Origin: Gemmatimonadota bacterium
GTDB taxonomy: Bacteria; Gemmatimonadota; Gemmatimonadetes; Longimicrobiales; Gaopeijiaceae
Direction: 5' to 3'
Assembly: GCA_034521595.1 (NCBI GenBank)
Contig: JAXHMG010000003.1
Location: 2,592,001 to 2,656,000 of the forward strand
Length of the DNA: 64,000 nt
How positions within the stretch are numbered: the first letter of the stretch is position 1; every line of letters begins with the position of its first letter. The notes beneath the pieces are model-generated. The model had not been told where the DNA came from and made no database searches. It was given only the letters and a program-made list of their open reading frames with translations. Of this stretch, positions 57,087 through 62,642 are shown one piece after another. Made by a program: the position numbers and the translations under genes.

Positions 57087-57988
57087 TCGACGCGCTGCCG
57101 GAGGAGTTGCGCCACGGGGTCGAGCAGGCGCTTCGCACACGGGAGCAATCGCCACGGATCGTCCGCGTGGAGCCGGTGGCCGGCGGGTGCATCCACAACG
57201 GCTGCCTGATCGTGACAGACACTGGCTCCGAGTGGTTCCTGAAGTGGAACCGGACGGTCCCACCGGGCATGTTCGAGGCGGAAGCCGAGGGCCTTCGGGC
57301 CCTCCGAGCCACCGGCGCCGTGAGGGTGCCCGAGCCCATGGCCTGCGAGGCCCCCGAGACGGAAGGTCCCGCGTGGCTCCTCATGGAGTACGTGCGTCCT
57401 GGTCCCGTCCGACCGGGATCGGAGCAGGCCCTCGGGGCAGGGCTGGCCCGGCTGCACCGCTCCGCCGTCGACCGCACGTTCGGGTGGAGCGAGGACAACT
57501 GGATCGGCTCCCTCCCCCAAGCCAACCCGCTCATGGAGTCTTGGGGGGAGTTCTGGCGTGATGCGCGAATTCACCCTCAGCTCGAGCGAGCGCGGCGGAG
57601 CGGGAGGCTTCGCGATCCGGTATTCGACCGACTCCTCGAAGCCACGCCGGGTGCGCTCAGCCACGTCGTCCAACCGGAGCTCCTCCACGGCGACCTATGG
57701 CAAGGAAATACCTTGACGGCGGAGGACGGGGAGCCGGTGCTGATCGATCCGGCCGTGTACCGCGGCGACGGAGAAGTCGATCTCGCGATGTCGGAGCTCT
57801 TCGGCGGCTTCGGGTCGGCGTTCTACGAAGCCTACGCCACGGGCCGACCCATCACGTCCGAGTATCGCACATACGGCCGGGACCTCTACCAACTCTACTA
57901 CCTCCTGGTCCACGTGAACCTGTTCGGCGCTTCGTACGAATCCGCCACGCTCGCCGCGGCCAGACGGGTCATGGAGGCGGTCGGTTGA
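57083..57988 (+). CDS. Fructosamine/ketosamine-3-kinase family
   Basis: GGCIH, FEAEAEGL, DNWIG, LLHGDLW.GN, DPAVY.GD.EVDLAM.ELFGGF. Confidence 0.95.
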   Translation: MIDALPEELRHGVEQALRTREQSPRIVRVEPVAGGCIHNGCLIVTDTGSEWFLKWNRTVPPGMFEAEAEGLRALRATGAVRVPEPMACEAPETEGPAWLLMEYVRPGPVRPGSEQALGAGLARLHRSAVDRTFGWSEDNWIGSLPQANPLMESWGEFWRDARIHPQLERARRSGRLRDPVFDRLLEATPGALSHVVQPELLHGDLWQGNTLTAEDGEPVLIDPAVYRGDGEVDLAMSELFGGFGSAFYEAYATGRPITSEYRTYGRDLYQLYYLLVHVNLFGASYESATLAAARRVMEAVG

Positions 57989-58112
57989 AGGGCTTGGATC
58001 GACGCCGCGCTGGTCCTTTTCTTGCAGCCTGAAATCGGCGCACCTACCTTTCGTCGCGGGTCGATGGGGCGCCCCAACCCTTCCCCTTCCCCCATCTTCG
58101 GATGCATTGCAC

Positions 58113-59483
58113 ATGTCGGACAGGCGCGAGGCAGCCGCGCGTTCCGTGGCCGCGGCGAGTGATGTGACGCCCCCGGGTCCGGCGGCCGACCACGAACGAA
58201 TGCTCCTGCTCGAGTGCCGGCTGGAGCAGATGAGGGCGGCGGTCACGGCCGCCCGTGAGGAGGCCGACGACGCCCGGACCAAGCTGGCCGACGCGTGCGC
58301 GCGGGAAGCCACCCACATGCGCCGGTCGAGCGTTCTGCACGAGGAGCTCGCCGACGCGCGCGCCGAGATCGCCTCGCTCCACCGGCAACTGGAACGCTCC
58401 GAAGCCCTCAGGGCCGAAATCGAGGGACATCTTTTCGAAGGGGGAACCCGGGAAGACGCCGAGGAGCTGGTGCGCCTCCGCCAACAGGTCCTCGCCGAGG
58501 ATCAACGCTCCGTCGTGAACCATCGCACCCTGACCCGGCTGCGTGCCCGGATCGAAGAGCTCGTAGCGAGTCGGGAGACGCTGCTCACGCGGATCGCGGA
58601 GTGGCAGAAGCTCATCAGGGAAGATGGGCCGGAGGCCGCCGATCTTTCCGAGTTCCTGGCCGAGCTGCGCCGCGAGATCCTCGACCTCGAGCACCGAGAC
58701 GTCACCAGTGACGCCCGGGAGAAGGCACTGCGGGAGCGCCTGACTCAGGCGGGCATCGACCCGGACGCGGAAGCGACCGCTCTGGAGGCGGACGAGCCCG
58801 AGCCGCGCACCGACGAGGCGGTATCCACCGGAGCCGACCCGAGCGAGGACGCTTCCCCGGCTGCGGACCCGGCTGCGGACATGCCGGGCCGGAACCGCGA
58901 ACTGCCAGCGTCCCGCCGGTCGCCGGCCCCGGCCCGGCCAGGCCCCGCGCGGAGCGATACCGACGCCGCGACGGCCGAGTTGGCGGCGGCGGAGGGCCCC
59001 GCTCGGCGAGCGGACCTCCTGCTCCGTCTGGGCCGGAAGGGAGAAACGGGCATGCTCGACGTGATCCGCCCATGGACGGAAGCTCCGCAAGCCTCGGTGC
59101 GTGCCGCCGCGTACGAAGCTCTCGGCCGGCTTCTCGAACGAGAGCCCGAAACGCTGGAGCCGCACCTGCGCAGGGGGCTCGCCGACACGGACGCGCGCGT
59201 GCGGCGACGCGTGGTTCTGGCCGCGGCCACCGCTCGAGGGCTACCCCCCGAGTCTCTGCTGGAGCCCCTGGAGGAAGACCCCGACGGGCAGGTACGTCGC
59301 GTCGTCCGCGAGGTCCTCCGGCAAGCGCGATCGACCACATCCGACCCCCGGCAGAGCAACGGGCTTGGCCCGGGTGCCCGGGCACCGTCCGCGCCGACGC
59401 TGGAACGCGAGCCCACGCGGGATCCACGTCCCGAAAGCTCGCATGAGCCGGCCCACTCGCACCGTTCCTCGAGGGCTCGTTAG
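58113..59483 (+). CDS. pomY: PomY-like protein: N-terminal coiled coil, disordered linker, HEAT repeats, disordered C-tail
   Basis: E/R/L/A-rich heptads over about aa 25-215; HEAT-like SVRAAAYEALGRL, DARVRRRVVLAA, DPDGQVRRVVREVL; P/S/R-rich tail. Its stop overlaps the ATPase start (TAGTG). Confidence 0.72.
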   Translation: MSDRREAAARSVAAASDVTPPGPAADHERMLLLECRLEQMRAAVTAAREEADDARTKLADACAREATHMRRSSVLHEELADARAEIASLHRQLERSEALRAEIEGHLFEGGTREDAEELVRLRQQVLAEDQRSVVNHRTLTRLRARIEELVASRETLLTRIAEWQKLIREDGPEAADLSEFLAELRREILDLEHRDVTSDAREKALRERLTQAGIDPDAEATALEADEPEPRTDEAVSTGADPSEDASPAADPAADMPGRNRELPASRRSPAPARPGPARSDTDAATAELAAAEGPARRADLLLRLGRKGETGMLDVIRPWTEAPQASVRAAAYEALGRLLEREPETLEPHLRRGLADTDARVRRRVVLAAATARGLPPESLLEPLEEDPDGQVRRVVREVLRQARSTTSDPRQSNGLGPGARAPSAPTLEREPTRDPRPESSHEPAHSHRSSRAR

Positions 59484-60448
59484 TGGAGATCCGATATCGG
59501 AGAAAACACCTCGCAGAGGTGCTCGGCATCCCGGAGCAGCGCCTCGCCGAAGCCGATGACCGGACCGATCCGTCGTCCGTGAACGGCGGACCGGACGACT
59601 ACGGTCCCGAGGATCTCTCCGCGTACCGGGAGGCGCTCGGGCTCCGACCCGGCCGGCGCCCCCTGCGGCGGCAGCTCTTCCTCAACTTCAAGGGCGGCAC
59701 CGGCAAGACCAGCTTGTCCGTCTCGTACGCGTACCGGCTGGCCGAGATGGGGCACCGCGTCCTGCTCGTGGATCTGGATTCGCAGGGGCACGCCACCCAA
59801 CACATGGGCTTCGAGGGAGAACACTGCGCGCATACGCTCCACGACGTGCTGATCGAGCGTCTGCCCGTCCGGGACGCGGTCGTGGACACGCCGTTGGCGG
59901 AGTTCGATCTCTTGCCCGCCAACCTCGGCATGAGCACCATCGAGCTGGCTCTCATGCCCCTGGCCGGGCGTGAGTACCGACTCAAGAAGGCGCTCGACGA
60001 GATCTCCGACAGCTACGAGTTCATCGTCATGGACGCGCCTCCGTCGTTCGGCCTCCTCAATCTGAACGCCCTGATCGCGGCCGACGACCTCTTCGTGCCC
60101 GTGCTTCCCGACTTTCTGTCCTTCCACGGCCTCAAGCTTCTCTTCGAAACGCTCAACGGGCTGGAGGAAGATCTCGACCATGCGCTGGAGCGCATCTTCA
60201 TCGTCATCAATCAGTACAACCCGACGACCCGGATCGCGCGAGAGGCGCGTGAAGCGCTCCAGACCCACTACCCCGAGTTCCTCCTGAAGACGATCGTCCG
60301 CCAGTGCACCCGGTTCGCTCAGGCGTCCAGCGAAGGGTTGCCCATCTGCGCCTTCGACCCGCGAAGCAAGGGAGCGGAGGATACGGATTCACTCATTCAC
60401 GAAGTGATGCCCACCCCGCGGGCGGAGCAGCAGGAGAAGAGCGCATGA
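59483..60448 (+). CDS. pomZ: ParA/MinD-family ATPase, PomZ (AgmE)-like
   Basis: RRQLFLNFKGGTGKTS, DLDSQGHAT, ALMPLAGRE, DAPPSFGLLNLNAL, DFLSFHGLKLLFET, RQCTRFAQASSEG; N-terminal HTH-like extension. Confidence 0.88.
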   Translation: MEIRYRRKHLAEVLGIPEQRLAEADDRTDPSSVNGGPDDYGPEDLSAYREALGLRPGRRPLRRQLFLNFKGGTGKTSLSVSYAYRLAEMGHRVLLVDLDSQGHATQHMGFEGEHCAHTLHDVLIERLPVRDAVVDTPLAEFDLLPANLGMSTIELALMPLAGREYRLKKALDEISDSYEFIVMDAPPSFGLLNLNALIAADDLFVPVLPDFLSFHGLKLLFETLNGLEEDLDHALERIFIVINQYNPTTRIAREAREALQTHYPEFLLKTIVRQCTRFAQASSEGLPICAFDPRSKGAEDTDSLIHEVMPTPRAEQQEKSA

Positions 60449-61356
60449 AAAACGGATTCAACGCGAACGTGCCGGTGCGGAAGCCACGCACGCGGATCGG
60501 CCAGATGCTCACGGAGCTGACCTCCGAAGCGGAGGAGCGAGAGCTCGACGATCTGGTCGAAGCCCAGGAGGAGGCGCCGGCCACCCCCTCGGAAGACCCG
60601 GACGCACCCCGAACCCCGGACGAGCCGGAAGCCCGGGATGATGCGGCCGACCCCGATGTGGAAGCTCCCACCCCACCGACATCGTCCCGGCCTCCGAGCG
60701 ATTCGACCCGCCTCGCGGCCGGCCGCGAACGGGTGGCATCGCTTCGCGACCGGCTCGCCGCGGCGGAGCGGGCTCCCGTCGCGGACAGGCAACCGAAGGA
60801 AACCGCCGCGAGCGTGCTGGAAGTCGTCGAGGACCTGCACGATCGCCTGGAAGCAACGATCCGAGAGCGCGCGGAAATGGCCGAGACGCTCGACGACACC
60901 CGAAGGCAACTCGCCCAGGTCGAGTCGGAGCTCGAAAAGGAACGGAGCGCGCGCGCCGCGATCGAATCGCGCCGGGAGGAACATGTACGCATCGCCGAGG
61001 AAGCGGTCACCGAAGCCGAGGCGCTCGCCGCCGAGCGTGACCAGGTCCTTTCCGAGCTCGCCGAACAACGGCGGCTCGACGACGAACAGGCGGAGCTCCT
61101 GGCCGAAGCGGAAGCGATGCTCGAGCGCCGGGACGCCGAACGGGCAGAGGCTGCCGCGGAGGTGGCGGAACTGCGCGAACAGCTGGAGACCCGCTCGGCG
61201 GAGATCGCGGACCTGAAGAGCCGCCTCCAGGCCCGGTCCTCCGACTACGCTCGCCTGGAGACCCGTTGCCGGGAGCTGGAGGCAGAGGTCGAGAAACTCA
61301 CCGAAGCACGTGAAGCGCTGGAGGCCATCGAAGCCCAGGTCCACCGCCGCACCTGA
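60445..61356 (+). CDS. pomX: PomX-like protein: basic N-terminal peptide, acidic/Pro-rich IDR, long C-terminal coiled coil
   Basis: AGGAG RBS and ATGA overlap with the ATPase; N-terminus MKNGFNANVPVRKPRTRIGQML; coiled coil from about aa 90 to the end. Confidence 0.82.
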   Translation: MKNGFNANVPVRKPRTRIGQMLTELTSEAEERELDDLVEAQEEAPATPSEDPDAPRTPDEPEARDDAADPDVEAPTPPTSSRPPSDSTRLAAGRERVASLRDRLAAAERAPVADRQPKETAASVLEVVEDLHDRLEATIRERAEMAETLDDTRRQLAQVESELEKERSARAAIESRREEHVRIAEEAVTEAEALAAERDQVLSELAEQRRLDDEQAELLAEAEAMLERRDAERAEAAAEVAELREQLETRSAEIADLKSRLQARSSDYARLETRCRELEAEVEKLTEAREALEAIEAQVHRRT

Positions 61357-61445
61357 CCCCGACGATCCGTCGGGAGCGAGCCACCACGAAAAGCCCCGTC
61401 AGGCCCCGGATAGAGGCCCGGCCTGGTGGCGGGTCGCCACCCGCA

Positions 61446-62642
61446 CTACGCCGCCGAGGTATCCACCACCTCCGCGATCCGGTCGAGCGCCTCGAGTAGC
61501 GTCTCGTCCGAAGCCGCGTAGCTCATCCGTACCCACCTGTCGTCTCCGAACGCGGCGCCCGGAACGAGCGCGACCCCCGCCTGCTCGATGATCTCGGAGC
61601 ACCAGGTCGTCGCGTCCGGCACACGGTCGTCGAAGAACCCGTCCACCCGGAAGTACACGTAGAACGCACCGTCGGGCTCGATCAAACGCACGGACGGGAA
61701 CAGCTCGCGCATGCGCGCGACCACGAGGTCCCGGCGACGCCGAAAGGCACGTCCCATCTCGGCCACCGCCTTCTCCGACGCGTCCACGTTCCGATACGCC
61801 TCGAGCGCAGCCATCTGAGTCGGTGTCGAAGGATTCGAGGTGACCTGACTCTGGAGTGCCGTGAGCTTGACCGCCACGTCCTTTTCGGCATAGGCGAAGC
61901 CCAAGCGCCACCCCGTCATCGCGTGGCTCTTGGAAAGCCCGTCGATCAGCACGGTCCGACCGAGGCTCTCGGGATCGAGCTCGAGCAAGCCGGGCGCCGC
62001 CGACCCCTCGCCGTGGTAGATCCTCCGGTAGATCTCGTCGCTGATGAGCCAAACGCCCCGGTCACGCGCCCACTCGGCGACCGCGGTGAGCTCCTGGTGC
62101 GAATAGACGGCACCGGATGGATTGCTCGGAGAGTTGAGAATCAAGCCCCGAGTCTCCTCCGTGACGGCACGGTCGAGATCCGCCGGCGTGACCTTGAAGT
62201 CACGCGACTCGGCGCCCCGAGCCACCACGGGCTCGGCGCGAGCCAACTGCACGAGCGCGGGATACGTAGTCCAGTACGGCGCCAGCATCAGCACGTCGTC
62301 TCCGGGGCCGAACAGGGAGAAGACGGCATTGAACAGCGCCTGCTTCGCACCGGTGCCGACCACCACGCCTTCCCAGGAGATCTCGCGTCCCGCCCGGTCC
62401 GCCAAGCGATCGGCGATCGCCTTCCGCAGCTCGGGCAAGCCGGGCGCCGGCGTATAGCGAGTGATTCCCCCGCGTATGCCCGCGATCGCCGCCTCCGAAA
62501 TGAACTCGGGCGTATCGAAATCCGGCTCACCCGCGCTCAGATTGATGATATCTCGTCCCTCGGCAGCGAGCCGTTTGGCGAGGGCGCTGACCGCCATGGT
62601 GGCCGACGGCTCGAGCTTTCCGATATTTTCGCTGAACGTCAT
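61446..62642 (-). CDS. Class I PLP aminotransferase (aspartate aminotransferase-like)
   Basis: AGEPDFDTP, NSPSNPSG, SDEIY, LSKSHAMTGWRLG, GAFY, RMSYA. Confidence 0.95.
   Translation of the reverse strand: MTFSENIGKLEPSATMAVSALAKRLAAEGRDIINLSAGEPDFDTPEFISEAAIAGIRGGITRYTPAPGLPELRKAIADRLADRAGREISWEGVVVGTGAKQALFNAVFSLFGPGDDVLMLAPYWTTYPALVQLARAEPVVARGAESRDFKVTPADLDRAVTEETRGLILNSPSNPSGAVYSHQELTAVAEWARDRGVWLISDEIYRRIYHGEGSAAPGLLELDPESLGRTVLIDGLSKSHAMTGWRLGFAYAEKDVAVKLTALQSQVTSNPSTPTQMAALEAYRNVDASEKAVAEMGRAFRRRRDLVVARMRELFPSVRLIEPDGAFYVYFRVDGFFDDRVPDATTWCSEIIEQAGVALVPGAAFGDDRWVRMSYAASDETLLEALDRIAEVVDTSAA

Follow-up and report, generated by a model that had tools for sequence, protein, structure and literature searches.

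In Myxococcus xanthus, placement of the division site involves the three proteins PomX, PomY and PomZ, and the ATPase PomZ is activated by a short peptide at the N-terminus of PomX. The 22-residue PomX peptide by itself stimulates PomZ when DNA is present, and K13A/R15A variants of PomX lose the ATPase-activating activity (PMC7993993). AlphaFold 3 models in a preprint put this peptide (PomX-NPEP) at a MinE-like site, with M1, K2, A4, F5, V9, K13, R15 and L16 facing the PomZ pocket, and map the activator function of PomY to its C-terminal part with alpha5 and gD (10.1101/2025.12.01.691545). In this study, we analysed a 64,000-nucleotide stretch of a Gemmatimonadota chromosome (contig JAXHMG010000003.1; hereafter the window, with its genome called the window genome). 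We consider it likely that positions 58107-61356 of the window are a translationally coupled pomY-pomZ-pomX operon and that the gene at 60445-61356 encodes a PomX orthologue which, by analogy with M. xanthus, would activate PomZ in the placement of the division site.

In these two sources PomXYZ is treated as a myxobacterial system, and searches for orthologues were confined to myxobacterial genomes (PMC7993993; 10.1101/2025.12.01.691545). For Gemmatimonadota, a 2024 paper on division in this phylum says that the genomes seem to be without Min, MipZ, PomZ, MapZ and SsgAB and names orphan ParA-like proteins as candidates. A supplementary file of that paper covers eight genomes, in which minC and minD are absent and two to four copies of parA/soj are present, and contains no row for PomZ. 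Full-text literature searches returned no report of PomXYZ in Gemmatimonadota among the matches listed, and in the searchable literature the system has not previously been reported in this phylum. With a complete and well-conserved PomXYZ operon in some Gemmatimonadota, the system extends beyond a single phylum, and the genomes that hold it now have a concrete candidate for how the division site is placed.

Three genes collinear with pomY, pomZ and pomX

The operon and the parts of its third gene are as follows (positions in the window).

58107-59483, plus strand: pomY-like gene, 458 amino acids from TTG 58107 (an ATG lies at 58113); N-terminal coiled coil, then a linker that varies, HEAT repeats and a short tail without conservation
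59483-60448, plus strand: pomZ orthologue, 321 amino acids, ParA/MinD-type ATPase (Pfam AAA_31, E value 4e-45) with an N-terminal extension of about 60 residues
60433-60436, plus strand: GGAG, a Shine-Dalgarno-like motif read from the sequence, 8 nucleotides 5' of ATG 60445 and within the 3' end of pomZ
60445-61356, plus strand: pomX-like gene, ATG 60445-60447, 303 amino acids, stop 61354-61356
60445-60513, plus strand: PomX N-terminal peptide, residues 1-23, predicted to activate the PomZ ATPase; K13, P14 and R15 present
60493-60522, plus strand: extension of the peptide, residues 17-26 (R-I-G-Q-M-L-T-E-L-T), conserved in the family
60523-60729, plus strand: disordered linker, residues 27-95, acidic and Pro/Ala-rich by composition, unconserved
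60730-61356, plus strand: C-terminal coiled-coil domain, residues 96-303, and the stop codon; homologous to the C-terminal scaffold domain of PomX

The gene order Y-Z-X is that of the M. xanthus record, where pomX likewise lies directly 3' of pomZ and pomY lies upstream. Neighbouring genes overlap by 1 nucleotide (TAGTG, in which the last base of the pomY TAG is the first base of the pomZ GTG) and by 4 nucleotides, respectively.

Over 306 amino acids, N-terminal extension included, the ATPase and M. xanthus PomZ share 57% identity (E value 2e-131). The two proteins are reciprocal best matches: in the M. xanthus genome the window PomZ scored 375 bits and the next ParA 140 bits, and in the window genome M. 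xanthus PomZ scored 375 bits against 120 bits for Soj. The MinD model TIGR01968 gave only 33.7 bits on the window protein, which in the PomZ tree described below stands among the PomZ rows, apart from both Soj outgroups. Both activator pockets modelled in M. xanthus PomZ are shared as well. The modelled NPEP pocket comprises F202, F205, E219, V229, L242, E248, A249, Y254, E256, F257, Q271', S274' and E275' (10.1101/2025.12.01.691545); in the window PomZ 11 of these 13 residues are identical, with V and L each replaced by I at the remaining two, whereas the genome's own Soj matches at 3 of 13. In the numbering of the window PomZ the pocket is F211, F214, E228, I238, I251, E257, A258, Y263, E265, F266, Q280', S283' and E284'. 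All eight residues of the modelled PomY-alpha5 pocket are identical (L148, L155, A156, F189, L191, L194, L219 and D230 in the window protein), and D90 and K268 of M. xanthus PomZ correspond to D99 and R277 of the window protein, respectively. Over the 54 PomZ rows of the tree the NPEP pocket is largely conserved, with E219 replaced in seven of the eight rows of one Myxococcota subgroup, and the alpha5 pocket is conserved in all groups.

A pairwise BLAST of the PomY-like protein against M. xanthus PomY found a weak coiled-coil match (E value 5e-4), which was superseded by a comparison of profiles. The profile of the window protein and 10 relatives aligned with that of 12 myxobacterial PomY proteins over 309 collinear columns (probability 98.8%, E value 6e-17), covering window residues 29-402 and ending at the HEAT repeats, which Pfam HEAT_2 placed at residues 326-405 (38.2 bits, cut-off 27.7). 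Shared with M. xanthus PomY are the coiled coil, a 'DLAxFIxxLR' segment and the HEAT repeats. However, M. xanthus PomY runs on for about 300 residues beyond them (disordered region, alpha5 helix and gD), whereas the window protein ends about 55 residues past the HEAT repeats, compared with about 20 in a sister family. No counterpart of M. xanthus PomY 438-682 (intrinsically disordered region, alpha5 and gD) was found in the window protein, and the PomY-like proteins of the 10 relatives also end shortly after the HEAT repeats. A gD-type C-terminus (RG..[LYF][FVLYI]) is present at 27 of 36 Myxococcota loci and at none of the 10 Gemmatimonadota loci (the window and nine others); the gene is therefore classed as PomY-like, short form.

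Two further observations concern PomY-like genes elsewhere. The short PomY-like proteins of the sister family f4 (L076, L078-L084) carry a conserved C-terminal R-T-E-A-x-I-V-Q-R-A-S right before pomZ, which the window protein does not have; that this motif is a mini PomZ-binding element is conceivable. At another Gemmatimonadota locus (G047:C4, about 686578-689800; L072/L077), PomY-like and PomZ-like sequences lie in one open frame of 713 amino acids, the PomY-like frame reading directly into the PomZ N-terminus; a natural fusion of PomY with PomZ and an artefact of assembly are both possible explanations.

The C-terminal domain of the PomX-like protein was compared with that of PomX by hhalign, using profiles of 42 sequences of the window type and 20 myxobacterial PomX sequences. 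The two aligned over 203 columns (probability 96.6%, E value 5e-10), window residues 93-299 corresponding to M. xanthus residues 189-398, collinear to both C-termini; reversing either profile, as a control for coiled-coil composition, gave a probability of 1.6% and an E value of 0.03. Pairwise similarity outside the peptide amounted to a 29%-identical coiled-coil stretch (E value 0.016). NCBIfam and Pfam scans of the protein returned sub-threshold coiled-coil families (SMC, Rad50), and no curated PomX model matched. Between peptide and coiled coil, as in M. xanthus PomX, lies a disordered linker of variable length. Residues 27-95 consist of 17% E, 17% P, 16% A and 14% D (64% E+P+A+D) with 7% hydrophobic residues, and across the 42 sequences the linker is unalignable and differs in length. 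The initial annotation of this DNA, a reading of the sequence that had called the gene pomX from its N-terminus, had described a low-complexity disordered region behind the peptide, and composition and variable length bear it out. Its identification of the protein as PomX is in turn upheld by the homology of the C-terminal domain and by the PomZ and PomY neighbours.

In the list of open reading frames (ORFs) the pomX-like gene begins at GTG 60304, 141 nucleotides upstream of ATG 60445, which is 47 codons too early, as the initial annotation had said. We place the start at 60445 on several grounds. The ATG overlaps the pomZ TGA by 4 nucleotides (GCATGA), and the GGAG motif stands 8 nucleotides before it. 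Among the 41 homologues that cover the start region, M falls in the same column in 30 and one column later in 6, together 36 of 41. The 141 nucleotides 5' of the ATG code in another frame for the conserved C-terminus of PomZ (consensus ...QEKSA), and the 4-nucleotide pomZ/pomX overlap was also found at 19 of 25 further Myxococcota loci. Longest-ORF calling at this gene thus adds 47 false codons and hides the functional peptide.

From ATG 60445 the translation opens MKNGFNANVPVRKPRTRIGQMLT. The M. xanthus peptide with which the initial annotation had compared this N-terminus proved to be letter for letter the synthetic PomX-NPEP given in the ATPase-assay methods (PMC7993993), and the pomX ORF of the M. 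xanthus record (L009:4043-5254) encodes the same peptide. Alignment to this verified sequence gave 10 identities at 22 positions in register, and these are exactly the residues that had been named: M1, K2, F5, N8, V9, K13, P14, R15, R17 and G19. Six of the eight residues modelled to face PomZ are among them (M1, K2, F5, V9, K13 and R15); A4 is replaced by G and L16 by T. Common to the window protein and M. xanthus PomX is an N-terminal stretch of some 22 residues that holds F5, N8, V9, K13, P14 and R15 in register.

As a chance control, the M. xanthus peptide was compared in register with every candidate start across all six frames of the 3.49-Mb window genome, where any ATG, GTG or TTG with no fewer than 100 open codons after it counted as a candidate. 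Among 96,762 candidate starts, 60445 was the sole match with 10 identities, while 9 identities occurred 4 times and 8 identities 27 times. Taken alone, this margin over other starts is modest; however, the match stands directly behind a PomZ orthologue, and a profile comparison decides the question. When residues 1-30 of 41 window-type and 20 myxobacterial sequences were compared as profiles, residues 1-21 aligned to residues 1-21 with a probability of 94% and an E value of 1.5e-7, against 0.24 for the reversed control, and pairwise BLAST of the window protein with M. xanthus PomX aligned the same residues (E value 7e-4).

The core of the peptide is well kept in the window-type family: V9 and P14 are present in 41/41 members, F5 and R12 in 40/41, N8 in 38/41, and K13 and R15 in 37/41 each. 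R12, near-invariant here, differs from M. xanthus PomX, which has R11 and A12 instead. The family also has the segment at residues 17-26, in which positions I18, V/M21, L/I22, E24 and L25 are nearly invariant; M. xanthus PomX is without it. Among the sampled Myxococcota the PomX N-terminal peptides are diverse (e.g., MRKAFDANVPKLRPRLK..., MKRGFEENVPKVRPRVRLG...); in some of them position 13 is R rather than K.

Occurrence of PomZ and PomX and phylogeny of PomZ

We searched a sample of 401 Gemmatimonadota genomes, including the window genome, for PomZ orthologues at a cut-off of E <= 1e-70. At least 14 of the 401 hold one, a number to be taken as a floor because the first pass was stricter. A PomX-like gene is present in 13 of the same 14 genomes, always adjoining pomZ, and in the 14th pomZ lies at a contig end. 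Among sampled Myxococcota genomes, 182 of 301 have a PomZ orthologue (one, G597, unpublished). This spread looks wider than the 'Cystobacterineae' of the eLife text (PMC7993993). In database searches, the three organism-named sequences among the 41 PomX-like matches were all from Gemmatimonas, Gemmatimonadales or Longimicrobiales metagenome-assembled genomes (MAGs); those among the best 120 PomZ-like matches were three from Gemmatimonadota/Longimicrobiales and one labelled 'Myxococcota bacterium'. These names mark the host as a member of Gemmatimonadota and not a myxobacterium, a point that the initial annotation had not made, nor had it mentioned that the PomY-like protein is without the second activator module.

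A PomZ tree was built from 56 rows: 10 from Gemmatimonadota genomes (the window included), 8 metagenome proteins, 36 others and 2 Soj outgroups. The 36 consisted of 25 Myxococcota sequences, which are biased to window-like sequences because they were picked as the top-scoring matches to the window PomZ, and 11 sequences from fetched pom loci. The tree omits L030 (in which PomZ was not located), the partial genes L066 and L073, and G008, G157 and G175.

All Gemmatimonadota and metagenome PomZ rows form one clade, with a Shimodaira-Hasegawa-like approximate likelihood ratio test (SH-aLRT) value of 98. The first branch of this clade is a protein titled 'MAG: ParA family protein [Myxococcota bacterium]' (P0120), which is 71% identical to the window PomZ and comes either from a mis-binned contig or from a lineage near the point of an inter-phylum transfer. 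When the tree is rooted at its midpoint, eight Myxococcota rows make up a subgroup that is sister (87) to the Gemmatimonadota clade; under Soj rooting this clade falls within the Myxococcota rows, and the basal forks have SH-aLRT values of 65-72. The simplest reading would be one transfer between the phyla. The frequencies in the two samples, 182/301 versus 14/401, favour a myxococcotal origin, although basal support of only 65-72 leaves the direction of transfer tentative. In a record titled Comamonas sp. KCTC 72670 (BNCN01000008.1; L014) we also found a Myxococcus-type pomX; over its first 30 residues the encoded protein does not differ from M. xanthus PomX, and the record is probably mislabelled or a contaminated assembly.

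Proposed function of the operon and a possible second type of system

Following the M. xanthus model, the PomX-like protein would work in three parts, namely a basic N-terminal peptide (core F5, N8, V9, R12, K13, P14 and R15), an acidic linker and a coiled coil. The coiled coil would build a scaffold and recruit the HEAT-repeat protein PomY. The peptide would dock in a cleft of the ATP-bound, nucleoid-bound PomZ dimer, where its K13 and R15 may stimulate ATP hydrolysis, and the Pom assembly would be moved over the nucleoid to mid-cell and there mark the site of the FtsZ ring. Short basic N-terminal peptides that stimulate an ATP-bound ATPase dimer are likewise found in the activators ParB/Spo0J, SopB and MinE (PMC7993993; 10.1101/2025.12.01.691545); the predicted carrier of the window peptide is a coiled-coil scaffold, in contrast to the DNA- or membrane-binding carriers of that class. 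The initial annotation had proposed that the activator function is retained, and this proposal is now supported by the orthology of PomZ, the conserved pocket and the conservation of K13, P14 and R15. We infer on the same comparative grounds that the PomX-like protein binds PomZ and activates its ATPase, and that it has a role at the division site.

Several points weigh against this reading. The pairing of the peptide with the ATPase rests on sequence comparison. K2, a modelled contact, is K in only 6 of the 41 window-type members, and among the Gemmatimonadota PomZ rows the pocket residue E248 varies. The PomX-like protein, at 303 residues, is about 100 shorter than the 404-residue M. xanthus PomX, and its linker combines an acidic character with a richness in Pro and Ala, unlike the Ala/Pro-rich linker of the latter. 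As the PomY-like protein is without the activator region, the mechanism must differ in part from that of M. xanthus. Furthermore, neither PomZ nor a PomX-like gene was found in any of the 69 further genomes sampled from the family of the window genome. The window genome is thus the sole holder among 70, a pattern that losses among the relatives or an ancient within-phylum transfer could account for, and with 14 holders among 401 and none among the 69 relatives the role may be accessory. A complex prediction with two copies of PomZ-like residues 55-321, PomX-like residues 1-32 and two ATP, run without controls, gave a score of 0.01 (mark, 0.32) and is evidence neither way.

ParA/MinD-type ATPases with peptide-bearing partners position many cargos. 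It is accordingly possible, although we think it unlikely, that the trio is homologous to PomXYZ and its peptide activates the ATPase, but that it serves a cargo or nucleoid function other than placement of the FtsZ ring. Such a function would suit the truncation of the PomY-like protein relative to M. xanthus PomY and the patchy occurrence in the phylum (14/401 sampled), by which most relatives divide without the system; all three proteins, however, are homologous to and collinear with their M. xanthus counterparts. The neighbourhood can be read both ways, since a reading of the ORF list by eye turned up no division genes next to the operon, but a similar reading of the long ORFs that flank pom in the M. 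xanthus record (L009) turned up none either. The Min proteins speak against such another function: in the window genome, which is 93% complete, there were no matches to MinC or MinE and none to MinD above the cut-off, the top score of 62 bits belonging to Soj.

We regard it as quite improbable that the peptide is a tether that only docks on PomZ, with activation by other elements, such as the PomY-like protein or the extension at residues 17-26. That extension is conserved as strongly as the core and occurs only where the gD-type C-terminus of PomY is missing (15 loci versus 0), and the alpha5 pocket of PomZ is identical at 8/8 positions despite the lack of a gD/alpha5 module; yet K13 and R15, which activation in M. 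xanthus needs, are each kept in 37 of 41 members, and the modelled NPEP pocket is conserved. That the likeness of the peptide is due to chance, or that the real start is GTG 60304 and the peptide internal, is highly improbable and already contradicted, for although the frame is open from that GTG and 9/22 in-register matches arise by chance 4 times in this GC-rich genome, the N-terminal profile comparison beats its reversed control, homologues begin at the peptide, the ATGA overlap is conserved across two phyla and the gene sits directly behind a PomZ orthologue.

We classified 46 loci (10 Gemmatimonadota and 36 Myxococcota) by two motifs, both of which were defined after the data had been seen: the gD-type C-terminus of PomY, and [MV][LI]x[ED][LVI] after the K-P-R core of PomX. 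The result was as follows.

gD-type PomY, PomX extension absent: 25 loci
no gD, PomX extension present: 15 loci (9 Gemmatimonadota, 6 Myxococcota)
no gD, PomX extension absent: 1 locus (L096, tail ambiguous)
gD-type PomY, PomX extension present: 0 loci
either PomY C-terminus, peptide not found: 5 loci

Of the 41 loci with a readable peptide, 15 thus have the extension and 26 lack it. The loci with an extended peptide and no gD correspond to the Gemmatimonadota clade and the eight-row Myxococcota subgroup of the PomZ tree, and the pattern carries no statistical weight because it may be one evolutionary event.

Tentatively, and with more doubt than confidence, we suggest a second, streamlined type of PomXYZ system, common to Gemmatimonadota and one Myxococcota subgroup, that crossed between the phyla once. 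In this type PomX would be the sole activator and would have two parts: residues 17-26 (I-G-x-V/M-L-x-E-L), whether gained or ancestral, would lie in the pocket modelled for PomY-alpha5 in M. xanthus, and K13 and R15 would lie at the MinE-like site. The use of the alpha5 pocket by the extended peptide is a speculation prompted by the 8/8 conservation of that pocket though there is no alpha5 module. The variant is a natural experiment on the model of two activators, as it asks whether PomX alone can drive PomZ and what occupies the conserved alpha5 pocket when PomY is without alpha5.

Surroundings of the operon

Over the operon (at 58044-61356), the GC-rich DNA yields many long spurious ORFs on both strands. 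These include one of 315 amino acids on the minus strand (60397-61344), antisense to the pomX-like gene, and one of 373 amino acids antisense to the pomY-like gene; no search supported any of these ORFs. Scanning 57800-61700 for promoters and terminators gave no site of either kind, a result that is uninformative for this organism.

Recent acquisition of the operon as an island was considered and rejected, since its GC content (0.67-0.71) matches that of its neighbours (0.65-0.71) and a close relative probably shares the neighbourhood of pomZ and the following aminotransferase gene.

61449-62642, minus strand: aminotransferase neighbour, a marker independent of the operon

In the close relative, which is represented by short contigs only, PomZ and the aminotransferase are each 88% identical to the window proteins, and both genes are probably on one contig. 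All four organism-named sequences among the best 120 matches to the aminotransferase come from Gemmatimonadota-type MAGs.

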